From: a virus
Virus record (IMG/VR): IMGVR_UViG_3300044712_001292
Location: 1 to 64,000 of that record
Strand: one strand, 5' to 3'
Length of the DNA: 64,000 nucleotides
Shown here: piece after piece, positions 27,865-42,162 of the stretch
Layout: every line of letters starts with the position of its first letter
How positions within the stretch are numbered: position 1 is the first letter of the stretch
Program-made: the position numbers and the translations under genes
The notes under the pieces: model-generated
What the model saw: the letters and a program-made list of their open reading frames with translations, nothing else
The model's database searches: none
Told to the model about the DNA's origin: nothing

Positions 27865-28428
27865 ATGCCGTACAAGTCCAAGGCTCAGATGCGTGCGTTC
27901 TTCGCCAAAGAAGACCGTGGCGAGCTTCCGAAGGGCACAGCTGAGCGCTGGGCTAAGCATACGAAGAACATCGAAGACCTCCCCGAAAAGAAAGAAGCCA
28001 TGCTGAAGTCTGCGTCACTCCTCGCCGCCGTTCTGGTACAGAACCAGATCAAGCGTGCTCAGCTTGCTGACCAGTATGGCTTCAACACGGACCAGGACGC
28101 TGCATGGCAGCAGCAGGTGCAGTCGAGCCTGCCTCCGGCGATGATGGAACAGCCGCAGCAGGACGCTGCATGGCAGCAGCAGGTGCAGTCCAGCCTTCCG
28201 GCACCGATGCTTACGCCCGAACAGCAGGATGCCGCGTGGCAGCAGCAGGTAAGTCAGGCACAGGCCATGCCCGCGCAGGAAACCATACCGCAAAGCGCGT
28301 TCACTGCTCGGCCGGCTGCCGCCCCTCCTGTCGCAGCTCCTATTCAGCCGGCGGCGCCTCCGGCACTTCCAGCTACCCCGCCGTCTCCGGCGGTAGCGTC
28401 GACACAACCCGCTGCCCGTGGCACGTGA
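27865..28428 (+). CDS. putative virion protein with Q-rich repeats
   Basis: MPYKSKAQMRAFFA N-terminus; QDAAWQQQV x3; Pro/Ala tail. Confidence 0.7.
   Translation: MPYKSKAQMRAFFAKEDRGELPKGTAERWAKHTKNIEDLPEKKEAMLKSASLLAAVLVQNQIKRAQLADQYGFNTDQDAAWQQQVQSSLPPAMMEQPQQDAAWQQQVQSSLPAPMLTPEQQDAAWQQQVSQAQAMPAQETIPQSAFTARPAAAPPVAAPIQPAAPPALPATPPSPAVASTQPAARGT
28093..28255 (+). repeat. three imperfect tandem repeats (QDAAWQQQV, ~66-bp period)
   Basis: caggacgctgcatggcagcagcaggt repeated. Confidence 0.85.
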
Positions 28429-31417: not shown

Positions 31418-32208
31418 TCCGACAGGGGAAGTTCGGTCCCATCCAAGTCGTACAGACCGACGAGGTGCAACAGGTGCGCCTGAATGGTCAGGTACAGGGA
31501 TCGGTGTTTCTCAGCCCGACAGCCCGTTCCGTCGGTATCGACGTTGACGGTCCTGGACCTGTCTCCGCCTCAGCATACAGCTACGGCTGGCTTATCGCGG
31601 GGGTGCACCGTCCCTATGGCTCTGGTGTCATGGTCGGTCTCGGCTCTGGCGTCGGAGTTGTACAGCTCCTCTACAACTTCCCGCACATCGATCTGACGGT
31701 TATCGAGATTGACCCCGTCATGGTCGAAGTCGCGCTGCGGTCCCTGCCGCTTCTCGATCACTATATGAACGAAGGTCGGCTGAACATCATCATAGCGGAC
31801 GCCGCGGAGGCGCTGGATACATCTGACCGGTATACCTTCGGCTGTGCTGATGCTTACGACGGAGGCGCGTCCTTTCAGCTGTTGACCGGGTACCTGACGA
31901 AACTGTGTCAGGTGTGCGACGACGTCTATATCAACGCGATCGACAGTCCGCTCGGTCGGCATATCAGTGCTATATCGGCGACGTGCTTCGATGCCGGGAA
32001 TCCACTGCTGTACGGCATGCGGGCTGTCGCTCCGGAAGTCGCCCACGTAACGGCACCAAAGGCGAACTATGTGCTGACATCCGCAGATGTGCAGTTACCC
32101 GATCTGGACGCGTTCATTCCGTTCGCAGCGTTGACGCAGCCTGCGGCGGACTACGGCCGTCTCTGCTGGAATCTCATGATCTCGGACGTTCTTGATGTAG
32201 GTGGTTGA
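31414..32208 (+). CDS. spermidine-synthase-like SAM-dependent methyltransferase
   Basis: VGLGSG, VIEIDP, IIADA and DAYDG motifs. Confidence 0.8.
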   Translation: MIRQGKFGPIQVVQTDEVQQVRLNGQVQGSVFLSPTARSVGIDVDGPGPVSASAYSYGWLIAGVHRPYGSGVMVGLGSGVGVVQLLYNFPHIDLTVIEIDPVMVEVALRSLPLLDHYMNEGRLNIIIADAAEALDTSDRYTFGCADAYDGGASFQLLTGYLTKLCQVCDDVYINAIDSPLGRHISAISATCFDAGNPLLYGMRAVAPEVAHVTAPKANYVLTSADVQLPDLDAFIPFAALTQPAADYGRLCWNLMISDVLDVGG

Positions 32209-32231
32209 CATTCGCACGAGCGACATAGCAT
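32205..32231 (+). promoter_or_regulatory. promoter candidate for tRNA-like element and pth2
   Basis: TTGACA-N15-TAGCAT. Confidence 0.4.
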
Positions 32232-32242
32232 CCTGCATCGAT

Positions 32243-32320
32243 GTCCTCGTAGCATTATGGAATGCACCTCGCCTACTACCGGCAGCACGGAAGCGGGTTC
32301 GATTCCCGCCGGGGACGCCA
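32243..32320 (+). tRNA. atypical tRNA-like element, irregular anticodon arm (loop TACTACC, nominal CTA)
   Basis: acceptor GTCCTCG/CGGGGAC, D-stem GCATT/AATGC, GGTTCGATTCC T-arm, encoded CCA. Confidence 0.65.
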
Positions 32321-32389
32321 AGTCGCAGCTGCTACTTGCGTATTACGCAGAACTCTGTAAGAGGTCGGACATGCGGATTCACGAGGTAG

Positions 32390-32707
32390 TCTAACGAACA
32401 AGCGCCACGACTGTATGTCGTGGTTCGAACGGATCTGCCGCTGGGCCTACAAGTAGCCCAGGCATGCCACGCATCTCACGAAGCGGGTCATAGATTCGGA
32501 GCAGCCAAGGGCTGCTTTCTCATAGTCTGCATGGTACCCGGTGAGGCGGAACTCACCACAGTAGCCCACGAGCTGAACGCCCGTGGGCTTCCCTGTTTCG
32601 TCTTTCACGAGCCAGATCTCAACGGCCAGGCAACCGCTCTGGCCGCGCTTGTCGACCACTCCGGTCGCAAGCACTTCAAACGCCTACCCCTTTGGAGGCA
32701 CTCATGA
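32390..32707 (+). CDS. Pth2-family peptidyl-tRNA hydrolase (start uncertain; first in-frame GTG at 32420)
   Basis: LYVVVRTDL...QVAQACHA...FHEPDLNGQATALA...LPL. Confidence 0.8.
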   Translation, partial: SNEQAPRLYVVVRTDLPLGLQVAQACHASHEAGHRFGAAKGCFLIVCMVPGEAELTTVAHELNARGLPCFVFHEPDLNGQATALAALVDHSGRKHFKRLPLWRHS

Positions 32708-33018
32708 CACATACCCTAACCACCGAAGAGACCGCTGTCCGGGCCAGGATCGCGGAGATTCGAGCAGAACTCAAAGACCTGGCCGCGAAGCGGAAGCTGA
32801 TCCTCGGCGTCTACCGCATGCCACACGGTACGCCGGAACATAAACAGGCCATGGTTAACGTCCGCCAGGCCCTGGGTATTCCGGAGGACTATATGGTGAA
32901 GTGGGCTCCGCACGCCATCCCGAACCGCTTCCTGTGGAGAGCGGAGACCCACCAGAAACATCTGCAGCTGGCTGAGCTGACGGGGAAGCCTCATGTCCGA
33001 GAGCCATTGCCAGCCTGA
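32704..33018 (+). CDS. hypothetical protein
   Basis: GGAGG RBS, ATGA overlap with pth2 stop. Confidence 0.7.
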   Translation: MTHTLTTEETAVRARIAEIRAELKDLAAKRKLILGVYRMPHGTPEHKQAMVNVRQALGIPEDYMVKWAPHAIPNRFLWRAETHQKHLQLAELTGKPHVREPLPA

Positions 33019-33023
33019 GGCAT

Positions 33024-33236
33024 ATGGATAAGGTGCGGTCTACGGAGAAAGCCGTGAACCGCACCGACCTCGACCAGATCGAAGCCATTGACCGCTGTAA
33101 CGCCTTCGAGCTGGGGTTCCTCAAGGCAGCCCATGACGCTGGCTTGTCGGAGGCTGAATATCGCAAAATGCGGAAGGCGGCGGAAGACGCGACGGAATTG
33201 GCGAAGCAGTACGGGCTGAAGGTCCCCCAAAAATAA
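33024..33236 (+). CDS. small AFxxGFxxAAxDxGL-family protein
   Basis: GAGG RBS; paralog of 60523 and 61254 ORFs. Confidence 0.75.
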   Translation: MDKVRSTEKAVNRTDLDQIEAIDRCNAFELGFLKAAHDAGLSEAEYRKMRKAAEDATELAKQYGLKVPQK

Positions 33237-33239
33237 TAC

Positions 33240-33267
33240 TTGCTATCACTACGACCGTAGCTATAAG
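33240..33267 (+). promoter_or_regulatory. promoter candidate for leader 1 / tRNA array 1
   Basis: TTGCTA-N16-TATAAG. Confidence 0.45.
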
Positions 33268-33281
33268 GCCACCAGCTTTCC

Positions 33282-33413
33282 ATGAGACTCATACCCACCG
33301 TCAAAGCCACGACCTGGCCCACCGCTCAGCGGATGCAGCCGCAGGGGTGCTTTGTACGCACAGGTTCCGAGGCGAAGAATGATCACATTCCAGCATCGGG
33401 GTTCTCAGGGTAG
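33282..33413 (+). CDS. leader peptide 1 (43 aa) of tRNA array 1 attenuator
   Basis: MRLIPTVKATTWPTAQRMQPQGCFVRTGSEAKNDHIPASGFSG*; 19 of 20 amino acids, no Tyr. Confidence 0.75.
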   Translation: MRLIPTVKATTWPTAQRMQPQGCFVRTGSEAKNDHIPASGFSG

Positions 33414-33452
33414 ACCAGGCTGACCATAGCCAGACTCCCGAGAACCCCGGAT
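33395..33452 (+). promoter_or_regulatory. antiterminator of attenuator 1
   Basis: ATCGGGGTTCTCAGGG (33395-33410) pairs with CCCGAGAACCCCGGAT (33437-33452), the terminator 5' arm. Confidence 0.8.
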
Positions 33453-33475
33453 CCCAGATCCGGGGTTCTTTCTTT
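33441..33475 (+). terminator. intrinsic terminator (attenuator 1)
   Basis: 13-bp perfect stem AGAACCCCGGATC/GATCCGGGGTTCT followed by TTCTTT. Confidence 0.9.
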
Positions 33476-33577
33476 CACAAGTTCTCACACTGCGTCGGGT
33501 TCGCCTTCGGGGTTCCTCATAAGCTCGGCTTAGCACGCAGACGGATAGTTTAACAAATCTATAGCGTATACAGTTGT

Positions 33578-33652
33578 GGGTGCCTAGCTCAGCGGTAGAG
33601 CACTTCGTCGACATCGAATAGGTCGCAGGTTCGATCCCTGCGGTACCCACCA
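33578..33652 (+). tRNA. trnV: tRNA-Val(GAC)
   Basis: cloverleaf, loop TCGACAT, CCA. Confidence 0.9.
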
Positions 33653-33699
33653 TGACGGGGCTGATAACATCGGCCCGCCGGATCCGTAACCGGCCGTAC

Positions 33700-33776
33700 T
33701 GCGGGATGCCTGGAGGTAGTTCCAGATCGGTCTCATAAGCCGACATAGGCGTGTGCAAGTCACGCTCCCGCAACCA
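33700..33776 (+). tRNA. trnM: tRNA-Met(CAT)
   Basis: loop CTCATAA, acceptor TGCGGGA/TCCCGCA, CCA; atypical T-loop. Confidence 0.8.
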
Positions 33777-33920
33777 AGGTCCTCGCACCCGCCAGTGAGG
33801 CGTAAGCGATACAGGGGTCCGCTGTATCGGCCACGTTTTTCCGTCCACACCACCCGCCAGAGCACTGGCAACTAGCCAAGCCGTTGTCGAAGGACCGGAG
33901 GAGGGGTGGTGTGCGGTTCA

Positions 33921-33997
33921 TCCCCTCGTAGACCTAGGTATCGAGGTACAGGTCTGTGGCACCTGGAAGTCTGGTGAAAGTCCAGAACGGGGGACCA
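33921..33997 (+). tRNA. trnH: tRNA-His(GTG), atypical
   Basis: CAGGT-CTGTGGC-ACCTG; bulged acceptor stem; T-loop TGAAAGT. Confidence 0.7.
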
Positions 33998-34105
33998 GTT
34001 TCAGCGCAATCTCAGCGCTTCTCGATCGGCGTGAGCTGTCGAGGACCTGCTCCGGGGAAGAGGGAGTGCTCTACGCCTCAGATAAGAACGAGGCGAGCGA
34101 TAGCT

Positions 34106-34180
34106 GGCTCTCTAGCATAAATAGTAATGCACCCGCCTGAAGAGCGGACAAACTCGGCGCGATACCGAGGGGAGCCACCA
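34106..34180 (+). tRNA. trnF: tRNA-Phe(GAA)
   Basis: loop CTGAAGA, CCA. Confidence 0.85.
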
Positions 34181-34203
34181 ATAGTGTCCACGTGGACACA
34201 GAT

Positions 34204-34277
34204 GGACCGTTAGGTTAAAAGTAAACCATCAGATTTTCACTCTGAAATCGACGGAGCGTTACCGTCACGGTCTACCA
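34204..34277 (+). tRNA. trnE: tRNA-Glu(TTC)
   Basis: TCAGA-TTTTCAC-TCTGA, CCA. Confidence 0.85.
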
Positions 34278-34280
34278 GAT

Positions 34281-34354
34281 GCACCTTTCTGTCAGTAGTA
34301 GGCACTCTCCCTCTCACGGAGAAAACGTCGGTGCGATCCCGACAAGGTGTACCA
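34281..34354 (+). tRNA. trnE: tRNA-Glu(CTC)
   Basis: TCTCC-CTCTCAC-GGAGA, CCA. Confidence 0.85.
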
Positions 34355-34358
34355 GAAC

Positions 34359-34434
34359 GGTCCCAGGGGCAGCCAGTTTAAGCCGACACCCTGTCACGGT
34401 GTAGTACCGAGTGCGACTCTCGGTGGGATCGCCA
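34359..34434 (+). tRNA. trnD: tRNA-Asp(GTC)
   Basis: ACACC-CTGTCAC-GGTGT, G73, CCA. Confidence 0.85.
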
Positions 34435-34438
34435 GAAT

Positions 34439-34513
34439 GCGCTAGCCACCGGTACAGTGGGGCTGGACCTGATAAGTCTGGACAGCACAGTTCGACTCTG
34501 TGATAGCGCACCA
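34439..34513 (+). tRNA. trnI: tRNA-Ile(GAT)
   Basis: loop CTGATAA, TTCGACT T-loop, CCA. Confidence 0.75.
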
Positions 34514-34517
34514 GCAT

Positions 34518-34602
34518 TGGCAGGACGGATAACGGTTTTCCAGCACGCTGTTAACGTGCCGCACCGAAAGGTCACCTGGGGGTTCGAATCCCTCCCTGCC
34601 AG
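34518..34602 (+). tRNA. trnN: tRNA-Asn(GTT) with long variable arm
   Basis: GCACG-CTGTTAA-CGTGC; extra ACC-GAAA-GGT hairpin; no encoded CCA. Confidence 0.8.
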
Positions 34603-34607
34603 ATTAT

Positions 34608-34677
34608 GGGCTGTACAGTCATGGCGACGAAGAACCTCCGCAAGGTTCTTGATACGGTTCGATTCCGTAACGGTCCA
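34608..34677 (+). tRNA. trnA: tRNA-Ala(CGC)
   Basis: loop TCCGCAA, G3:U70, A73; no encoded CCA. Confidence 0.75.
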
Positions 34678-34682
34678 AGAAT

Positions 34683-34757
34683 GGGCACGTAACTCAGCGC
34701 TAGAGTACCTGATTTGCACTCAGGAGGTCGCAGGTTGAAATCCTGTCGTGTCCACCA
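34683..34757 (+). tRNA. trnA: tRNA-Ala(TGC)
   Basis: loop TTTGCAC, G3:U70, CCA. Confidence 0.9.
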
Positions 34758-34809
34758 TCTTGATCCTCGGAAGCCGGAGTCCGAGGTACCAGAATCTAGA
34801 CCGGCGTGT

Positions 34810-34883
34810 GGGCCTGTCGTTCATCAGTAGGACATCTGCATGGCATGCAGAAGGGCGGCGTGCGATTCGCCGCAGGTCCACCA
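34810..34883 (+). tRNA. trnA: tRNA-Ala(GGC)
   Basis: loop ATGGCAT, G3:U70, CCA. Confidence 0.85.
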
Positions 34884-34886
34884 CAT

Positions 34887-34960
34887 ACGTACGTCAGTCC
34901 AGCGGCTGCATCGGTTTCCAAAACCGGTTGAGGTTGGGGCAGCACCAACCGTACGTGCCA
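34887..34960 (+). tRNA. trnW: tRNA-Trp(CCA)
   Basis: loop TTCCAAA, acceptor ACGTACG/CGTACGT, G73, CCA. Confidence 0.8.
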
Positions 34961-35113
34961 CTCGTGGATGTCCACCTCCAGAGGGACGCCGATGGAGGAC
35001 CACGAAACGCCGCGCTCACGTCGGGGGCGCACTATAGCCGGTAGGTTACCGAGGGCTAGTGAGGGCCGTATTCTCCGTCAGGAGTATGCAGTGGCCACGA
35101 CAGGACACCTTAC

Positions 35114-35189
35114 TGGCGCGTAGCTCAATTGGCAGAGCAGCAGTTTCTGACACTGCCGGTTCTTCGTTCGACTCGAAGCGCGCCAACCA
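35114..35189 (+). tRNA. trnQ: tRNA-Gln(CTG)
   Basis: GCAGT-TTCTGAC-ACTGC, CCA. Confidence 0.9.
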
Positions 35190-35194
35190 TTCGA

Positions 35195-35270
35195 TACTCC
35201 GTGGTGTAGCGGCGCTGCACGGCTGGCTTTGACCCAGAAGGTGGAGGCTCGACCCCTCCCGGAGTAACCA
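35195..35270 (+). tRNA. trnQ: tRNA-Gln(TTG)
   Basis: loop CTTTGAC, CCA. Confidence 0.85.
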
Positions 35271-35273
35271 CAT

Positions 35274-35350
35274 CAGTACGTAGCTCAGCTTGGTAGAGCA
35301 CTTGCCTTGGGCGCAAGAAGTCGGAGGTTCAAATCCTCTCGTACTGACCA
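35274..35350 (+). tRNA. trnP: tRNA-Pro(TGG)
   Basis: CTTGC-CTTGGGC-GCAAG, canonical arms, CCA. Confidence 0.9.
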
Positions 35351-35351
35351 C

Positions 35352-35425
35352 GAGCACAGAGCCAGACGGCTAGGCAGTAGCCTGCAAAGCTACCTAACTG
35401 CGTTCGACTCGCAGTGTGCTCTCCA
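35352..35425 (+). tRNA. trnC: tRNA-Cys(GCA)
   Basis: loop CTGCAAA, U73, CCA. Confidence 0.9.
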
Positions 35426-35428
35426 GAT

Positions 35429-35504
35429 GCCGACTTAGTGTAACTGGAAACACGCAACCTTTCCAAGGTTGAGTCGCTCGGATCGTACCCGGCAGTCGGC
35501 TCCA
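35429..35504 (+). tRNA. trnG: tRNA-Gly(TCC)
   Basis: CAACC-TTTCCAA-GGTTG, U73, CCA. Confidence 0.8.
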
Positions 35505-35507
35505 TTC

Positions 35508-35583
35508 GTGGGTTTAGCTCAGCAGCTAGAGCGATTCATTGCCAATGAATAGGCGGCAGGGGCAGCACCTGTAACCCACACCA
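35508..35583 (+). tRNA. trnG: tRNA-Gly(GCC)
   Basis: ATTCA-TTGCCAA-TGAAT, CCA. Confidence 0.85.
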
Positions 35584-35586
35584 CGC

Positions 35587-35661
35587 GCGGGTATATCATA
35601 CCAGCTAATGAGCCTGCCTTCCAAGCAGGAGAACACGGGGCAGCACCGTGTACCCGCACCA
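35587..35661 (+). tRNA. trnG: tRNA-Gly(TCC), second copy
   Basis: CCTGC-CTTCCAA-GCAGG, CCA. Confidence 0.85.
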
Positions 35662-35663
35662 AT

Positions 35664-35741
35664 GCCCGGATAGCTCAATTGGATCAGAGCGCTTCGCTAC
35701 GGACGAAGAGGTTGCAGGATCGTGCCCTGCTCTGGGTGCCA
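35664..35741 (+). tRNA. trnR: tRNA-Arg(ACG)
   Basis: CTTCG-CTACGGA-CGAAG, CCA. Confidence 0.9.
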
Positions 35742-35772
35742 CAGTAGCGTATAGAGGGAGGTCAACTCACAT

Positions 35773-35848
35773 GCCCGACTAGCTCATCTGGAAGAGCGTC
35801 CCGGTCCTAACGGGAAGGTGCCCCGTCCGAGTCGGGGGTCGGGTGCCA
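35773..35848 (+). tRNA. trnR: tRNA-Arg(CCT)
   Basis: TCCCG-GTCCTAA-CGGGA, CCA. Confidence 0.85.
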
Positions 35849-35849
35849 T

Positions 35850-35927
35850 GCGATCATCGCCTAACTGGATATGGCACTGCCCTCCGAAGGCAGACTAATG
35901 CAGGTTCGAGTCCTGCTGATCGTGCCA
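35850..35927 (+). tRNA. trnR: tRNA-Arg(CCG)
   Basis: CTGCC-CTCCGAA-GGCAG, CCA. Confidence 0.9.
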
Positions 35928-35928
35928 T

Positions 35929-35997
35929 GCCGGACGTCCAAGACACGCAGGCCTTCTAAGCCAGCTCAGCTGGGGCAAGCACCCAGGTCCGGTGCCA
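35929..35997 (+). tRNA. trnR: tRNA-Arg(TCT), 69 nt with truncated D-arm
   Basis: loop CTTCTAA, acceptor GCCGGAC/GTCCGGT, CCA. Confidence 0.65.
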
Positions 35998-36088
35998 TAT
36001 CATCGGCTCATGCAGTCGCTACGGGCAGGGATCGGGGCGTCCGGTAAGACTCCCTTGACGATATGGGCGGACGGTATATTAAGCGTTC

Positions 36089-36316
36089 ATGCACACTGCT
36101 ATAGACGCCAGACTCGCACTTCTGTGGACATGTCAGGCATGCAAAGCTGTGAATTGGTATACTACATCGCGGTCGAAGGAGGCGGAGGAGGCGAGGTTGG
36201 AGGCGGCTAAGGCGATGGAGTGTGATCCAGAAGACCTGTCTGTTATACCTGAGATCCTCTGCTGCCGTACCTGTGAAGAACCGCACCGGTTGCCGGATGA
36301 GATCGGTGCATCCTAA
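36089..36316 (+). CDS. small zinc-ribbon-like protein inside tRNA array
   Basis: WTCQAC...CRTC; upstream TTGACG...TATATT. Confidence 0.6.
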   Translation: MHTAIDARLALLWTCQACKAVNWYTTSRSKEAEEARLEAAKAMECDPEDLSVIPEILCCRTCEEPHRLPDEIGAS

Positions 36317-36323
36317 ATCGTAT

Positions 36324-36398
36324 GCCGTTAACGCCTAGATAGCGAGGCACCGTTTTCGTAAAGCGGACAGAGGGGCGCACGTCCTCTTGACGGCACCA
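36324..36398 (+). tRNA. trnT: tRNA-Thr(CGT)
   Basis: loop TTCGTAA, CCA. Confidence 0.85.
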
Positions 36399-36467
36399 GT
36401 ATAGAATAAAGGGCAAGAGTGTGCTAAACGCGCTAGAGAAGGTCCAAGTCACTCGCTTACCACATGT

Positions 36468-36541
36468 GCTCCGTTAAGTAAACGGTATACTAAAGATTTT
36501 GTAAATCTTAATTCTGTGTTCGACTCACAGACGGAGCACCA
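36468..36541 (+). tRNA. trnT: tRNA-Thr(TGT)
   Basis: AAGAT-TTTGTAA-ATCTT, CCA. Confidence 0.85.
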
Positions 36542-36549
36542 ATAAATAC

Positions 36550-36623
36550 GCCGTTGTAAGATAGTGGCAGTCTACCTCCCTGGTATGGAGGAAGCGGGTT
36601 TTCGATTAACCCCGACGGCACCA
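36550..36623 (+). tRNA. trnT: tRNA-Thr(GGT)
   Basis: CCTCC-CTGGTAT-GGAGG, CCA. Confidence 0.85.
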
Positions 36624-36625
36624 AC

Positions 36626-36698
36626 GCATCGGAGGCGGAACAGGCTCCGCACTCAGCTTTTAACTGAGGGTAAGCTGGTTCGAGTCCAGCCCGATGCA
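36626..36698 (+). tRNA. trnK: tRNA-Lys(TTT)
   Basis: CTCAG-CTTTTAA-CTGAG; no encoded CCA. Confidence 0.85.
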
Positions 36699-36703
36699 CA
36701 GAC

Positions 36704-36777
36704 GCACCCTGAGCAGGCTGGCATTGCACTCGGTTCTTACCCGAGGGGAGAAGGTTCGATTCCTTTAGGGTGCACCA
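36704..36777 (+). tRNA. trnK: tRNA-Lys(CTT)
   Basis: CTCGG-TTCTTAC-CCGAG, CCA. Confidence 0.85.
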
Positions 36778-36782
36778 TCCAT

Positions 36783-36858
36783 CTGGCCATCGCCTAACCT
36801 GGCAAGGCACTGCGTTCGGGTCGCAGGGATGCTGGTTCAAATCCAGCTGGCTAGACCA
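36783..36858 (+). tRNA. trnP: tRNA-Pro(CGG)
   Basis: CTGCG-TTCGGGT-CGCAG, CCA. Confidence 0.9.
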
Positions 36859-36934
36859 TGTTAGTCCATCACTCAGTTAGCAGAACGATGTCACGAGGTA
36901 GAAGCGATCATCGAGGTCAAACCGATGTATGTCA

Positions 36935-37009
36935 GGGAGTTTATATCAGTGGCAGATAGCTCGGCCTACACCCGAGATGTGGGTGGTTCGATTCCACCAA
37001 CTCCCACCA
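36935..37009 (+). tRNA. trnV: tRNA-Val(TAC)
   Basis: CTCGG-CCTACAC-CCGAG, CCA. Confidence 0.9.
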
Positions 37010-37063
37010 CTTCTATGACGGCGTGTCCTCCGTGGAGTGATTCAGCCAGTCACCTACCATTAT

Positions 37064-37140
37064 CGGCCGTGGGAGTGCACGCGCCTCACTCGTCTTATGA
37101 ACGAGCCAAGACTGGGCCGAGCACCCGGTACGGCCGACCA
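37064..37140 (+). tRNA. trnI: tRNA-Ile(TAT), atypical
   Basis: CTCGT-CTTATGA-ACGAG; acceptor CGGCCGT/ACGGCCG, A73, CCA; T-loop CCGAGCA. Confidence 0.7.
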
Positions 37141-37161
37141 GCTGTATACGCAGGAGTCATC

Positions 37162-37710
37162 ATGCGCTGTCTCGTCCTTAACCAGGATATGTCGTTTCTT
37201 CATATGACCACAGACGCCTTCGACGGCATCAAGCTGATGACGAAGGGGCGTGTACAGCCTTTGGCGACCTATGATAAGCGTCTGCGTTCAGAGAAGCACG
37301 AGTTCGTCATCCCGGCTGTAGTCCAACTGAAGGGGTACGTACACGTCGGCAAGCGTAGGCACGGGTTTACTCAGGCATCGCACCAGAACGTATTCGTTCG
37401 AGATGGCGAGCGGTGTGCGTACTGTGGGTGCAAGCTGACGCTGCGGAGTTGTACGAAGGATCACGTCGTACCGCGTTCTCGTGGTGGCAAAGACACGCTG
37501 TCGAATGTCGTCGCTTGCTGCAGGTCATGCAACGAGGAGAAGGCCGACAGGACGCTCGCGGAGTCGGGCATGAAGCTCCGCGAGGGCATAGAGCTGCGTC
37601 AGCTCACTGACGATGAGAAGCTGTCCGTCCTCCTGAAGACGGGGGCAGGTGCTGCAGAGCGGAAAGCATGGATCGGCTTTCTGAAGGCTACGGGGTTGAC
37701 ACTGTTCTGA
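37162..37710 (+). CDS. HNH endonuclease (McrA-like)
   Basis: LVLN N-terminus; RDGERCAYCG...TKDHVVPRSRGG...NVVACCRSCNEEK; AGGAG RBS; start re-called from 36925. Confidence 0.92.
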   Translation: MRCLVLNQDMSFLHMTTDAFDGIKLMTKGRVQPLATYDKRLRSEKHEFVIPAVVQLKGYVHVGKRRHGFTQASHQNVFVRDGERCAYCGCKLTLRSCTKDHVVPRSRGGKDTLSNVVACCRSCNEEKADRTLAESGMKLREGIELRQLTDDEKLSVLLKTGAGAAERKAWIGFLKATGLTLF

Positions 37711-37722
37711 CATCTCTATGAT
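37696..37722 (+). promoter_or_regulatory. promoter candidate for leader 2 / tRNA array 2
   Basis: TTGACA-N15-TATGAT. Confidence 0.45.
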
Positions 37723-37743
37723 GACGCTTATCCGAGTCATACT

Positions 37744-37821
37744 GTGAATACCGGCCTATCATCGCTGCTGTCGTCTTACCTCAGTTCCTATAGGAACACC
37801 GGGGACGGTGGCGCTTTGTAA
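37744..37821 (+). CDS. leader peptide 2 (25 aa, Leu/Ser/Tyr-rich) of tRNA array 2 attenuator
   Basis: GTG start; MNTGLSSLLSSYLSSYRNTGDGGAL*; 12 consecutive L/S/Y codons at 37756-37791. Confidence 0.8.
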   Translation: MNTGLSSLLSSYLSSYRNTGDGGAL

Positions 37822-37856
37822 CCCGAACATGCTCGGAACGCGCCCTCGAACCCCGG
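37799..37856 (+). promoter_or_regulatory. antiterminator of attenuator 2
   Basis: CCGGGGACGGTGGCGC (37799-37814) pairs with GCGCCCTCGAACCCCGG (37840-37856). Confidence 0.75.
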
Positions 37857-37883
37857 ATCCACAAGGTCCGGGGTTTTTCTTTT
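37848..37883 (+). terminator. intrinsic terminator (attenuator 2)
   Basis: AACCCCGGATC/GGTCCGGGGTT stem followed by TTTCTTTT. Confidence 0.9.
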
Positions 37884-37910
37884 ACAACGATATATGGTGG
37901 TTGCGATGAC

Positions 37911-37995
37911 GGGGGCGTGGCTTCGTTGGGAACTGGCACACCTTGCCGGCTTAGAACCGGTAGCTTTGAGAGTTCGAGTCTCTCCGCCCCTACCA
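37911..37995 (+). tRNA. trnL: tRNA-Leu(TAG)
   Basis: GCCGG-CTTAGAA-CCGGT, enlarged D region, short variable loop, CCA. Confidence 0.8.
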
Positions 37996-37998
37996 CAT

Positions 37999-38073
37999 AC
38001 CCGTGTAGCCCAATTGGCAGGAGGCGCTAGTGTGAGGCACTAGACAGTGCTGGTTCGAATCCAGTCGCGGGTA
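37999..38073 (+). tRNA. trnL: tRNA-Leu(GAG)
   Basis: CTAGT-GTGAGGC-ACTAG, short variable loop; no encoded CCA. Confidence 0.85.
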
Positions 38074-38079
38074 ATATAT

Positions 38080-38173
38080 GCACATCGTTCCGTACGGTAG
38101 TCTGTAAAACTATTGCGCACAAAAGCATGTACGGCGTACGCGCGGTTGGGTTAAACTCCCTCGATGTGCACCA
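38080..38173 (+). tRNA. trnY: tRNA-Tyr(GTA), atypical (no canonical D-arm)
   Basis: GTAGT-CTGTAAA-ACTAT; acceptor GCACATCG/CGATGTGC, A73, CCA. Confidence 0.7.
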
Positions 38174-38178
38174 GATAA

Positions 38179-38255
38179 CGGCGTATGATGCAACTGGCGA
38201 CATACCTGCCTCAAAATCAGGGTCTATGCGGGTTCGACTCCCGCTGCGCCGACCA
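38179..38255 (+). tRNA. trnL: tRNA-Leu(CAA)
   Basis: loop CTCAAAA, short variable loop, CCA. Confidence 0.8.
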
Positions 38256-38258
38256 CAA

Positions 38259-38347
38259 CCGGTAGTGGCGAAATCGGCTGAGACGCGACAGGCTTAAACC
38301 CTGCTACACGAGAAACATTGTGGGTTCGAGTCCCACCTACCGGACCA
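38259..38347 (+). tRNA. trnL: tRNA-Leu(TAA)
   Basis: loop CTTAAAC, long variable arm, CCA. Confidence 0.9.
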
Positions 38348-38350
38348 TTT

Positions 38351-38441
38351 GGAAGGTATTGCGACTTTAGTAAGCGACCCGAGTTCGAACCTCGGTGACA
38401 CGTCTGACGGCGTGAGGGTGCGATCCCCTGACCTTCCTCCA
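38351..38441 (+). tRNA. trnS: tRNA-Ser(CGA)
   Basis: CCGAG-TTCGAAC-CTCGG, long variable arm, CCA. Confidence 0.8.
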
Positions 38442-38444
38442 TAT

Positions 38445-38531
38445 GGAATATGAACCGACCAGGGTGTCGGCTCCGCTTGGAAAGCGGCTGGGCGCTTCGG
38501 CGCTGTGTTTCGAGTACACCGTATTCCGCCA
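38445..38531 (+). tRNA. trnS: tRNA-Ser(GGA)
   Basis: loop TTGGAAA, long variable arm, G73, CCA. Confidence 0.85.
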
Positions 38532-38533
38532 TT

Positions 38534-38619
38534 GGAACGTAAATCAGCATGGTGCTGAACCTCGGTGCTAACGAGTGTGGCCCTACGGGGCTGAGGGTCG
38601 GGTCCTCTGCGTTCCGCCA
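38534..38619 (+). tRNA. trnS: tRNA-Ser(GCT)
   Basis: loop GTGCTAA, long variable arm, G73, CCA. Confidence 0.85.
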
Positions 38620-38624
38620 CATAT

Positions 38625-38711
38625 GGATAGTGAACTGCTCGGGTGAGCAGCACCGGCTTGAAACCGGCAGGGCCCTACGGGGCTGGGGATCGAGACCTCC
38701 GCTATCCGCCA
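38625..38711 (+). tRNA. trnS: tRNA-Ser(TGA)
   Basis: loop CTTGAAA, long variable arm, G73, CCA. Confidence 0.85.
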
Positions 38712-39530
38712 TCACATATAGTCAGGTGGTTCGTCGATACCTTTCCATACACGTATCGATGCGTCGAAAAGGTACGGGAATATCGCCTCGAAAGCGTAGA
38801 TAGGCAGAAAGAGGAACTGATCGTGTTTCGCCCGACCCGTCGGGCTGTTATGCCCATGCTGGATGATATGTTCATAACCACTTACGAGCATCAGCCTGTG
38901 GACGTGCTGCCAGAACGCCTTCGATCTCGATCGAATAGCTGTGCGTGACGCAGCGCAGATGATGGCGAGACACGGCTGTATGATTGGAGGCATAGGTGTT
39001 TCGAACAGAGAGCACCAGACGGAGCTCAGACACCTGGCATACGACTCTTTGTAGCACTCGAGGATGACTTTGTCCCCGTCCTGCCGGTGGGTATGAACGA
39101 GATATCCATGCCTCGACATGGACGGTTTCCACGCTCCGAGGTTCATAAAGTCCAGTGGCGCCTGCACGGCTTGACGTACATCGTCGATGAAGCGAGGGGC
39201 GTGGTCGAATGGGAAGTGTGCGAAGAGCGTGTACTCCGGCAGGGCATCGTAGTGTTCGGCAATGTATCTGCAGTAGACTGTACCAGCGTACGCGCGCCTG
39301 TCGTAGATGGTATGTACATGCCGAAGAGGGAGGCAGCCACCGTCGCTGTAGCAGACGGTCCTACCGTTGATCAGGCGGAGCCAATCCCACGTATTGGACT
39401 CTTTGACGGCATAGTTCGCACACAGCGTCCAGTTCTCTGGCAAGTCGATGCGGTCTGTGTCGAGGTCGAAATCCCAGCTTCCGCGGTGGCCGTAAATAGA
39501 CTTCTTCGTAAGACGGAGGGGCGTCGGCAT
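38712..39530 (-). CDS. DUF3431-like protein (possible glycosyltransferase-related fold)
   Basis: YCRYIAEHYDALPEYTLFAH.PFDH and IRSRSKAFW motifs; start re-called at MPTPLR to avoid overlap. Confidence 0.65.
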   Translation of the reverse strand: MPTPLRLTKKSIYGHRGSWDFDLDTDRIDLPENWTLCANYAVKESNTWDWLRLINGRTVCYSDGGCLPLRHVHTIYDRRAYAGTVYCRYIAEHYDALPEYTLFAHFPFDHAPRFIDDVRQAVQAPLDFMNLGAWKPSMSRHGYLVHTHRQDGDKVILECYKESYARCLSSVWCSLFETPMPPIIQPCLAIICAASRTAIRSRSKAFWQHVHRLMLVSGYEHIIQHGHNSPTGRAKHDQFLFLPIYAFEAIFPYLFDASIRVWKGIDEPPDYM

Positions 39531-39618
39531 GCAGGAAACTACGTACGGTCCGTGATTCGTCAAGGTCTCTCGAAAAGACCACTTGCAGACCCCGGTGGCC
39601 TGCATAGTGTTCTCCGCT

Positions 39619-40272
39619 ATGTCAATAACGGTCCTCCGTAGCCCTGTCATCCCTCGGAACATGCAAGCGACACGGATGTCCGGCAGCCCCGTAGAAGACG
39701 CCTCGGTGATTCGTAAAGACGCGCCCATACCTGTCTTGATGCAGGAACACGACGGGTCGTTCCGAAACGCAGGCACGACGGTAGCCGCCGACCTCCCAGA
39801 GCCTAAGCTGACCGACCCGCTTCCACAGGATGCTGGTTCGACGAGAGCGAAGCCGGAGTTCGAAGTACCAGTAGGGCAGGCTATGGCGCAAGCCTCCGGA
39901 CTGGCGGTACCGGCGCCTGCGCAGCCAGCGCAGTTTAAGCCTTCTGTGTCCAATTATACGCCCCCTCCGACCCCAGCACCGCCAGCTAAACGCGTTCGGG
40001 TACGGATGTCGAATCCGGGCATGGGCAGGGTAACGGTCGGTGTTCGCGCGGTCAGTATCTCGGAAACCGTCGTCATCCTCGCTTACCCGCAGGACGCCGA
40101 CAACATCGTTGAACCCCCTGTCTGTGGTGGAGATAACCCCATCCGTGTCGAATTCGAGGGGAAGAAGTACACGTGCGTATTCGGTGGATGGACAACAGAA
40201 CTCGAGGGGATGTTCCTGGTCGTCCTCTTACGCACCGGAGAAGACGAGGACCCAAGCCCTTCTAAGGCTTGA
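39619..40272 (+). CDS. hypothetical protein
   Basis: Pro-rich linker then beta-rich C-terminal domain; start uncertain. Confidence 0.65.
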   Translation: MSITVLRSPVIPRNMQATRMSGSPVEDASVIRKDAPIPVLMQEHDGSFRNAGTTVAADLPEPKLTDPLPQDAGSTRAKPEFEVPVGQAMAQASGLAVPAPAQPAQFKPSVSNYTPPPTPAPPAKRVRVRMSNPGMGRVTVGVRAVSISETVVILAYPQDADNIVEPPVCGGDNPIRVEFEGKKYTCVFGGWTTELEGMFLVVLLRTGEDEDPSPSKA

Positions 40273-40308
40273 ATCCGCTCGTCGTAACACCACAATCGTG
40301 CGAGACCT

Positions 40309-42162
40309 ATGACGACGTTCATTCCTCCCCCGCGGCCTGTGGCCGGAGCCGTCGGCAGCGGAGGCGCAGACAAGCCGGTTATCTCACCGTGGATGGACTA
40401 CGCATCGTTGACGATGCCGGACAGCCACCAGCTGGTGATGTGGTGGGCGCAGTATCTGTGGATGATGGATGGTAACTATAGGACGGCGATGGAGCGGGTT
40501 GCCGCCCACTTCCTGACCATCATCGAGTTCCCCGATCTGGAGCCTGACGAAGAGAGCGAGTGGCGCGACTTCTTCAGCAACCACATGAACTACCGCCGTG
40601 AGCTGCTTGCCTGCGCTCACGAATACCTCTGCTACGGCAACCTCATCGTTGGCTTGTACCTTCCCTTCAAGCGGTTCGCCCGGTGCCGTAACTGCTCCGT
40701 CGAGAACCCGCTGAGCGAAGTCGATTACGAGCTAGAGCTTGTTGATAAGCACCCGTACCTGCACTGGCGCAGGGTGCGCCCCTGCCCGAAGTGTCAGGAT
40801 AAGCAGACATATGAGGTTTTCGACCGCCGGTCGTCCGATCTATCCAAGGTGCGGCTGAACCGGTATTGCCCGCTTGAAATCGAAATCGCGTTCAACCGCC
40901 ACAGCCACAGCAAGAATATCTACTGGAATATACCGGACGATGAGGTTCGTGATATTCAGCAGAAAGCACGCATCCATATCGACGAGACACCGCTCGAGGT
41001 GCTGGAGACGGTCGCGGCCGGCGGTAAGCTGCACTTCAACAGCGACCTGATCCTGCATATCGATGAGCCGTGCATCAGCGGTGTTCGCACGCGTGGCTGG
41101 GGCGTGCCGCGTACGATCGCCAACTTCCGTACGGCGTGGATGCAGCAGGTGACGAGTAAGGCGGACCAGACCGCGATGCTCGACTACACACTCGGTATGC
41201 GCTGGATCTCCCCGTCGCCGACACCCGGCGGCACGGATCCGATGATGAATCGTGGCATGCAGGAGTTCGTCGCGCAGATCAGCGCTGCAGTGCGTGAGCA
41301 TCGTCTCAATCCGGCGTCATACCACACGTCACCGTATCCGCTGACGTACCAGTTCATGGGCGGTGAAGGCGGCGCACTCGTGCCTCCGGAGAAGCTCAAG
41401 TTCCGTCAGCAGGAATACCTGAACCAGCTCGGTATTCCTCTGGAATACCATCAGATGAACCTGAGCACGCAGGCCGCTCCCATGGCGCTGCGTCTGTTTG
41501 AGTCGTACTGGCAAGCCCTCCCGGCGTTCTACAACAAGATCCTTACGTGGATCACGGAGATGCTGTCCAAGACGTATAATCTCGAGGCGACATCGGTTCA
41601 GATGCAGAAGACCACCGTTGTCGACGACGCCAACTACAAGGCGCTGTTGCTGCAGCTGATGTCTGGCAACCAGCTTTCTCCCCAGACCGCGCTCGAGCCG
41701 CTTGGCATCAACGCGCACGAGGAGGTCAAGAAGGTCTACCGTCACCAGGACTATGTCAGCCGGGTACAGTCCGAGTTCGACGAGAAGGCCCAGAAGCGGC
41801 AGGAGATGGCGGCGTTCAAGTCGCAGGTACAGCAGCCGACGGCAGCCCAGCTCGCCCAGCAGCAGCAGGGCGGGGCGCCTCCGCCTCCTGGAACTCCGAT
41901 GGGTGGTGTTCCGACCGGAGGCATGCCTGGCGCATCTCCGAATACGCCTCAGACGCTGGCTGGTCTGGCGGATCAGGCGTCTCAGATCGCTCAGCAGCTC
42001 GTGACGCTGCCTGAGTTCGAGCGTAAACAGCAGCTCAAGCAGCTTCGTGAGGGGAACAAGCAGCTGCACGCCCTGGTTATGAGCGATATGGAGGACCTGC
42101 GGGAGGCAGCTGCCAACCAAGGTAAGCAGATGATCCTTCAACAGGGACCCCCGCAGGGCTAG
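40309..42162 (+). CDS. putative portal protein
   Basis: 617 aa helical protein with YRTAMERVAAHF, YLCYGN, two CxxC pairs, GWGVP and Q/P-rich tail; heads the head-gene cluster (inference). Confidence 0.55.
   Translation: MTTFIPPPRPVAGAVGSGGADKPVISPWMDYASLTMPDSHQLVMWWAQYLWMMDGNYRTAMERVAAHFLTIIEFPDLEPDEESEWRDFFSNHMNYRRELLACAHEYLCYGNLIVGLYLPFKRFARCRNCSVENPLSEVDYELELVDKHPYLHWRRVRPCPKCQDKQTYEVFDRRSSDLSKVRLNRYCPLEIEIAFNRHSHSKNIYWNIPDDEVRDIQQKARIHIDETPLEVLETVAAGGKLHFNSDLILHIDEPCISGVRTRGWGVPRTIANFRTAWMQQVTSKADQTAMLDYTLGMRWISPSPTPGGTDPMMNRGMQEFVAQISAAVREHRLNPASYHTSPYPLTYQFMGGEGGALVPPEKLKFRQQEYLNQLGIPLEYHQMNLSTQAAPMALRLFESYWQALPAFYNKILTWITEMLSKTYNLEATSVQMQKTTVVDDANYKALLLQLMSGNQLSPQTALEPLGINAHEEVKKVYRHQDYVSRVQSEFDEKAQKRQEMAAFKSQVQQPTAAQLAQQQQGGAPPPPGTPMGGVPTGGMPGASPNTPQTLAGLADQASQIAQQLVTLPEFERKQQLKQLREGNKQLHALVMSDMEDLREAAANQGKQMILQQGPPQG

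Follow-up and report, generated by a model that had tools for sequence, protein, structure and literature searches.

Leader-peptide attenuators are well described for trp, his, leu and phe, and multivalent versions for thr, ilvGMEDA and ilvBN of enterobacteria, and attenuation of this type has been modelled (PMC1183508). In these classical systems, the choice of structure is kinetic, and the terminator is dominant at equilibrium. To our knowledge, no targets of leader-peptide attenuation other than amino-acid, synthetase-related and resistance genes have been described. Here, we report the computational analysis of two arrays of tRNA genes in the virus contig IMGVR_UViG_3300044712_001292 of IMG/VR (103 kb, 60% G+C, estimated to be about half complete), the first 64 kb of which are referred to as the window. 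Each array probably forms one transcription unit, controlled by a ribosome-mediated (leader-peptide) attenuator that would exert negative feedback on the supply of tRNA.

Like the attenuators of amino-acid operons, each unit combines a short leader open reading frame (ORF) holding control codons with an intrinsic terminator and a mutually exclusive antiterminator, and the position of the ribosome would select between the two structures. The units differ from those operons in that the output is tRNA and not enzymes, in that the sensed molecule and the product are of the same class, and in that they are borne by a phage. Furthermore, the control codons here cover 3, 4, 6 or 17 amino acids, with many synonymous codons matched to anticodons, and folding of cut transcripts suggests that a loss of translation gives read-through and not super-attenuation. 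The tRNA output, the anticodon-matched leaders for several amino acids and the viral carriage set the units apart from known attenuators. The sequence-only reading from which this work started knew of no description for phage tRNA arrays, and a full-text literature search likewise yielded no report of tRNA genes under leader-peptide attenuation, whether phage or bacterial.

The tRNA sets of phages are seen as compensating for a codon-usage mismatch, for host tRNA decay or for anticodon nucleases, which gives a reason for a phage tRNA output that follows need. We know of no phage tRNA study in which demand-sensing control is described; the genes are treated as constitutively or temporally expressed. 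T-boxes bind uncharged tRNA via a specifier codon, independently of the ribosome, and control synthetase or amino-acid genes. The proposed circuit resembles them in that the state of tRNA is sensed and a terminator or an antiterminator is chosen, but it would depend on the ribosome and deliver tRNA. An Rfam search of positions 31000–40500 at E <= 1 returned no T-box, riboswitch or other cis-regulatory family, barring chance tRNA-antisense matches. Leaders that sense translation inhibition are known from the resistance genes erm, cat and mef/mel (PMC4335068). In those leaders, a drug causes the stall on a particular nascent peptide, and proteins are the output. Here as well, stalling in a short leader would open the downstream genes, but it would report codon supply, and the output would be tRNA.

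In function, the trn operon of Anabaena sp. PCC 7120 comes closest: this long tRNA array is usually silent, and impaired translation induces it (PMC8421152). Direct repeats in its promoter are bound by the repressor TrcR (PMC8421152, PMC10272220), and no attenuation, leader or terminator is mentioned in these reports. In both cases, a spare tRNA array would be switched on under impaired translation, whereas the Anabaena array is under promoter/repressor control and belongs to a bacterial plasmid and not to a phage. In the island that carries the phage arrays, no repressor gene was noted, and no search there was aimed at TrcR-type direct repeats.

Two codon-matched modules

The first module is composed of the following features:

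33240–33267, plus strand: promoter candidate P1, with a -35-like element (33240–33245) and a -10-like element (33262–33267), each with 5/6 matches, and a 16-nt spacer
33282–33413, plus strand: leader ORF 1, 43 codons with ATG start and TAG stop, containing all 17 amino acids served by array 1
33397–33412, plus strand: 5' strand of the module-1 antiterminator, in the last five codons plus the stop, a near-copy of the terminator 3' arm
33418–33431, plus strand: small hairpin after the leader-1 stop, predicted by folding and enclosed by the antiterminator
33440–33477, plus strand: intrinsic terminator T1, with a 14-bp stem, a 3-nt loop and an interrupted U-run
33578–37140, plus strand: tRNA array 1, 32 genes for 17 amino acids, with no gene for leucine (Leu), serine (Ser) or tyrosine (Tyr); the CCA end is encoded by nearly all genes

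The second module follows the first array and an intervening endonuclease gene:

37162–37710, plus strand: HNH endonuclease gene between the arrays (Pfam HNH_5, E = 5e-14), with a good Shine-Dalgarno motif
37696–37722, plus strand: promoter candidate P2, read by eye, with a perfect -35 element (37696–37701), a -10-like element (37717–37722) and a 15-nt spacer
37744–37821, plus strand: leader ORF 2, 25 codons with GTG start and TAA stop
37799–37814, plus strand: 5' strand of the module-2 antiterminator, which would pair either with the control codons at 37764–37781 or with 37840–37856, and which ends 5 nt before the stop
37823–37836, plus strand: small hairpin after the leader-2 stop, predicted by folding and enclosed by the antiterminator
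37848–37885, plus strand: intrinsic terminator T2, with an 11–12 bp stem, a 5-nt loop and a strong U-run
37911–38711, plus strand: tRNA array 2, nine genes in the order Leu(TAG), Leu(GAG), an atypical Tyr(GTA), Leu(CAA), Leu(TAA), Ser(CGA), Ser(GGA), Ser(GCT) and Ser(TGA)

The common layout described in the sequence-only reading, i.e., a promoter candidate, a short ORF, an antiterminator strand in the last codons and a hairpin after the stop, was found complete in both modules. P1 was also read by eye and was missed by the consensus scan because the last base of its -10 element is not T. P2 sits inside the end of the HNH gene, which itself begins 22 nt past the final array-1 tRNA, and the P2 spacer is below the optimal length. 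In leader 2, codons 5–16 (37756–37791) are all Leu, Ser or Tyr and make use of ten different codons, and the last sense codon is Leu TTG. This leader lies in the frame of the HNH gene, from which it is set apart by the TGA stop of that gene and 11 codons, and its GTG start overlaps the stop of a 9-codon mini-ORF (37718–37747), an arrangement that suggests possible translational coupling.

Only three strict intrinsic terminators were found in the whole 103-kb contig, and two of these are T1 and T2. As had been claimed, they have sequence in common, namely a 13-nt stretch that occurs nowhere else in the contig. When the common motif was used as a marker in IMG/VR, ten matches were obtained, none with a tRNA nearby, and they were dismissed as chance GC-rich palindromes. 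Another near-copy of the terminator 3'-arm motif, the third in number, lies at 33508–33518 in the spacer before array 1, approximately 40 nt downstream of T1. T2 adjoins its array so closely (25 nt from the U-run and 34 nt from the stem to the first tRNA) that there is no space for a separate promoter, so array 2 would be reachable only via read-through of a strong terminator. Placing a strong terminator before the array would make little sense unless termination were conditional.

The codon matching between leaders and arrays is statistically strong. The 12-codon Leu/Ser/Tyr run of leader 2 is the longest in the six frames of the contig, the next one reaching 8 codons; a run of this length was reached in 0/100 second-order Markov genomes, and it is unique in 240 kb of DNA of this phage group. 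Together with the final Leu codon, the run covers 9/9 array-2 anticodons (P = 1e-3 against open windows of equal length). All 17 amino acids other than Leu, Ser and Tyr occur together in 0.23% of open 43-codon windows and in a single one of 299 ORFs of 35–50 codons, which is leader 1. When wobble is allowed, leader 1 covers 30/31 anticodons of array 1 (P = 2e-4), Arg(CCT) being the sole one not covered, and by exact cognate codons it covers 22/31 (P = 2e-3). These figures bear out the earlier claim that the leader codons mirror the downstream tRNAs.

Both arrays together comprise 41 tRNA genes for all 20 amino acids. Array 1, with 31 distinct anticodons, serves Val, Met, His, Phe, Glu, Asp, Ile, Asn, Ala, Trp, Gln, Pro, Cys, Gly, Arg, Thr and Lys, and array 2 contributes four Leu, four Ser and one Tyr gene. 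Standard finders under-call the cluster because many of the genes have non-canonical T loops: ARAGORN at default settings reported 27 genes and Rfam approximately 29, and about a dozen genes (e.g., Gly, Trp, Met, His, Phe, Glu and Asp) are without the usual T-loop motif. A hand-written cloverleaf scanner was dropped as too strict, and a covariance model was used instead, for which 26 class-I tRNAs of this phage served as input. It was applied unfiltered and was complemented by relaxed ARAGORN and a manual reading of the anticodons. The model and the manual reading recovered the full set, and the previously claimed 32 and 9 genes, divided by amino acid, proved exact in counts and coordinates. 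The weakest calls are Arg(TCT) at 35929–35997 (14 bits), Ile(GAT) at 34439–34513 (25.5 bits) and Tyr(GTA).

The Tyr(GTA) gene, at approximately 38075–38178, was called by no program and is the weakest member of array 2. Its acceptor stem is perfect, and its anticodon loop and CCA end are readable; the D region has only 13 nt, the variable region has about 30 nt, and the T stem is limited to 3 bp. The gene may have decayed to a pseudogene, or it may encode a highly unusual tRNA. In the related phage G001, introduced below, a normal Tyr tRNA of 90 nt occupies the same array position.

Leu, Ser and Tyr tRNAs are the class II tRNAs of bacteria, and bacterial Leu tRNAs are usually long-armed. A division by class I versus class II shape was nevertheless rejected, since array 2 includes two Leu tRNAs with short, class-I-like variable arms (37999–38074 and 38179–38255; likewise L020 1688–2012 in G001; 75–77 nt), and in array 1 the Asn(GTT) tRNA (34518–34603; 86 nt), whose gene is alone in the cluster in not encoding CCA, bears a long variable arm of 18 nt. 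The split therefore follows the amino acid and not the shape of the tRNA.

Within array 1, a 326-nt gap contains a 75-codon ORF (36089–36316) with two Cys-x-x-Cys pairs, which is zinc-ribbon-like and has no Pfam match. Further unexplained gaps in this array are located at 33777–33922, 33998–34105 and 34961–35113.

Alternative structures and related phages

The leader RNAs were folded with ribosome footprints as constraints, and transcripts were cut at the terminator loop, which was taken as the moment of decision. On these cut transcripts, the 5' arm of the terminator was predicted to be paired upstream with a probability of 0.6–0.9, and with a probability of 0.1–0.45 when a ribosome footprint was placed on the last nine or so codons or on the stop. 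A footprint on the first three quarters of either leader kept the upstream pairing, and the antiterminator also stayed in place with no ribosome at all. The last leader codons contain the 5' strand of the antiterminator, which would hence be masked by a terminating ribosome. The loss of the predicted pairing only with footprints at the very end of the leader agrees with the masking that had been proposed for a ribosome at the stop.

The module-1 antiterminator would form a 10-bp perfect duplex with 33440–33449 plus extensions (-21.4 kcal/mol), which is stronger than in 1000/1000 dinucleotide shuffles. In module 2, the antiterminator is predicted as an extended, interrupted helix of 14 pairs, and the control codons at 37764–37781 can pair with the antiterminator strand, corresponding to the classical 1:2 pairing. 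For the antiterminator duplexes, shuffling gave P < 0.001 for module 1 of the window, 0.003 for the module of the relative G006, and 0.03 and 0.057 for the two modules of G001.

With a best portal protein match of only 22% identity among GenBank and cultured phages, the phage of this contig has no cultured relative. Its uncultured relatives have 170–216 kb and portal identities of 50–77%, and the closest ones (73–77%) are known from Logan assemblies only. Eight portal loci at 50–63% identity have no tRNAs adjoining the portal gene. Among the 15 relative records searched, four contain tRNAs, namely G001, G006, G007 and G008; in G007 there are three scattered tRNAs.

G001 (191.5 kb, portal 63% identical) carries two modules. 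Its array A, composed of Leu(CAG), Tyr(GTA), Leu(CAA), Leu(GAG) and Ser(TGA), is preceded by a promoter-like site, a 17-codon leader with GTG start, and two tandem terminators, and 9/11 central codons of the leader are Leu, Ser or Tyr. Approximately 1.1 kb further on, array B (Thr, Thr, Pro, Asn, Gln, Gln) stands behind its own leader and terminator, and this leader of 24 codons contains 12 consecutive Thr, Pro, Asn or Gln codons. In G006 (179 kb, portal 62% identical), the homologous array reads Thr, Arg(TCT), Asn, Pro, Ser(TGA), Gln, Gln, so Arg(TCT) and Ser(TGA) are extra relative to G001. The G006 leader has the same Thr/Pro/Asn/Gln core with the addition of AGA and three Ser codons (TCA/TCC/TCG); because the additional leader codons accompany the additional tRNAs, leader composition changes with array content across the kin. 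The control codons of G006 also pair with the antiterminator strand in the predicted structures. The anticodon coverage reached 5/5 in G001 A (P = 9e-4), 6/6 by exact codons in G001 B (P = 3e-4) and 7/7 by exact codons in G006 (P = 3e-5). The Thr/Arg/Asn/Pro/Ser/Gln run of G006 was discarded as evidence by itself, as such runs are common in GC-rich DNA and not significant; only its exact coverage is.

Throughout the five modules, the antiterminator strand is located within -23 to +10 nt of the leader stop, a small hairpin follows each stop, and the gap from the stop to the terminator stem is 26–28 nt in 5/5 cases. In G001 and G006, only 10–30 nt lie between the terminators and the first tRNA, which leaves no room for a promoter. 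The leader of G006 has a strong Shine-Dalgarno motif, and leader B of G001 starts 5 nt after an upstream stop. As the tRNA sequences are strongly diverged between the phages, recent copying of a block does not by itself account for the shared design. Conserved leaders in related phages had been set beforehand as a test by which the attenuator reading could fail; G001 and G006 keep the layout, with leaders that track their own arrays.

In the relatives, homologues of 28418–31417, 31414–32208 and 39583–40272 and the portal gene are contiguous, those of 31414–32208 and 39583–40272 being adjacent to each other just upstream of the portal gene. In view of this contiguity, positions of about 32209–39582 of the window form an inserted island relative to the kin. 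Besides the two tRNA arrays and the HNH gene, the island contains a tRNA-like gene of odd form, a gene for a PTH2-like peptidyl-tRNA hydrolase, two small ORFs and, in convergent orientation, a DUF3431 gene. The DUF3431 protein and a 108-aa protein were each used to scan metagenomes, and no relatives were found. The 999-aa protein encoded upstream of the island (28418–31417) shows a Nudix-box-like motif near residue 750, as read from the translation.

The tRNA-like gene and the PTH2-like gene are located at 32243–32320 and 32420–32707, respectively, and the PTH2-like assignment has a Pfam E-value of 4e-4, below the cut-off. A PTH2-like gene stands next to a tRNA in three phages (the window; L021 848–1272; L046 5215–5898). 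This tRNA has a CTA (amber-reading) anticodon in G001 and G008; in the window, its acceptor, D and T arms are retained, and a proper anticodon arm is missing. TAG is the stop of both leader 1 of the window and leader A of G001, so an amber suppressor tRNA could in principle carry ribosomes through the terminator.

Weighing the explanations

The feature corresponds to the structural definition of a leader-peptide attenuator, i.e., a codon-enriched short ORF, an intervening intrinsic terminator, an antiterminator that excludes it and a stop placed for masking. In the proposed mechanism, transcription would start at a sigma-70-like promoter, and a ribosome would translate the short leader. With fast decoding, the ribosome would reach the stop while the RNA polymerase is about 26–28 nt further on; by covering the strand in the last codons, it would let the terminator hairpin form, and transcription would end before the tRNA genes. 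If the ribosome is delayed on any leader codon, or if there is no translation, the strand would pair with the terminator 5' arm as an antiterminator, and the polymerase would enter the array. Hence, tRNAs would be made when their codons are decoded slowly and would be off when supply is adequate, and as the leader codons are those read by the array's own tRNAs, the circuit would be one of negative feedback. In this model, we infer that the leaders are translated, that a kinetic competition takes place, in which direction regulation runs and what triggers it physiologically. The natural trigger could be a pool of host tRNAs that does not match the codon usage of the phage, host shut-off, or a defence that cleaves tRNA; the link to tRNA depletion by anticodon nucleases, which we purely infer, is plausible.

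Every in-silico test that was run, including codon matching, folding, the position of T2 and the comparison with relatives, agrees with the core of the sequence-only reading, in which two codon-matched attenuators gate the arrays. Several observations weigh against it. In the full-length leader RNA at equilibrium, the terminator always wins, irrespective of the ribosome position. The switch must, on this model, be kinetic, and as full-length equilibrium folding is uninformative for a kinetic switch, it was replaced by the folding of cut transcripts. Of the mutually exclusive structures expected for both leaders, the pairings were thus obtained on cut transcripts, while full-length equilibrium folding gave the terminator only. 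The pairing of the module-2 antiterminator with the terminator arm alone is no better than in shuffles (P = 0.14). The U-run of T1 is interrupted, and 107 nt separate T1 from array 1. Regarding an independent promoter past the terminators, the lack of room after T2 speaks for gating, whereas the gap after T1 may hold one, with only weak hexamer matches there. Neither leader of the window is preceded by a convincing Shine-Dalgarno motif (by a crude count, a motif of this kind precedes 58/133 of the long ORFs in this contig), and the start codon of leader 2 is a GTG in the HNH frame. The Tyr gene of array 2 looks defective. Finally, in the more distant G008 (portal 51% identical), more than 30 tRNA genes are interspersed with protein genes across 12 kb (L046, G008:33000–46000), and this region shows no recognisable codon-matched leaders and few terminators; leader control is thus not universal in this phage group.

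Some of these points feed alternative explanations. The codon matching might have been selected while the leaders act by another route, such as precursor processing or stability (RNase E/RNase P access, Rho loading), or with the leader RNA or peptide itself as the product. The matching statistics are silent on which step is controlled, and the terminator always forms at equilibrium; moreover, in Sinorhizobium, attenuation is reported to release leader RNAs that act in trans (PMC6614838). Against such a route, 5/5 modules combine a GC-rich hairpin and a U-run directly before the tRNAs with a complementary strand at the leader stop and a constant spacing, a combination that transcription attenuation requires and the other routes do not, and we consider this explanation unlikely. 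Somewhat less likely still are attenuators that report general translation capacity or an antibiotic-like inhibition of the ribosome, comparable to the erm/cat/mef leaders or to an Anabaena-like stress sensor, and not particular tRNAs. The predicted persistence of the antiterminator without any ribosome means that any loss of translation would open the gate, and the Anabaena array is indeed induced by impaired translation (PMC8421152), but a general sensor would need neither anticodon-matched leaders nor leaders that change with the array.

It is very improbable that T1 and T2 are ordinary gene-end terminators, of a 70-codon gene and of the HNH cassette, respectively, with arrays transcribed from promoters of their own or by leaky read-through, a Leu/Ser/Tyr grouping due to class II tRNA descent, and coincidental small ORFs. 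T1 does lie approximately 200 nt after a protein gene and T2 about 140 nt after the HNH gene, and HNH genes are mobile and often found within phage tRNA clusters. The leader ORFs without strong ribosome-binding sites, the 107 nt after T1 and the class II nature of Leu, Ser and Tyr tRNAs in bacteria fit this account as well. However, the coincidence would be needed five times in three phages, with a composition that tracks array content, and there is no promoter room after T2 or after the G001 and G006 terminators. In addition, the short-armed Leu and long-armed Asn tRNAs indicate a split by amino acid and not by shape.

The ribosome-mediated attenuator thus remains the reading that we prefer for each array. 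With a slight inclination, we also favor the wider picture that these phages carry a self-tuning tRNA supply circuit. Each leader, including the 'universal' one of 43 codons, would be a codon-by-codon decoding test for the tRNAs of its block, by which the shortage or destruction of individual tRNAs (through codon mismatch, host shut-off or a tRNA-cleaving defence) would be sensed and the matching genes transcribed; leaders would co-evolve with their arrays, and the design would recur in unrelated lineages.

If this is true, the partition of the arrays by amino acid would be accounted for, and the modules would be compact natural sensors of specific tRNA availability that could be used as reporters. 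The multi-codon leaders would offer a natural experiment on the number of hungry codons that can be read by one attenuator. As the sensed molecule would also be the output, the virus would carry a direct feedback on decoding capacity. Phage tRNA genes would then be demand-regulated units and not passive codon-usage patches, with a testable link between phage tRNA arrays and the tRNA-targeting defences of their hosts.

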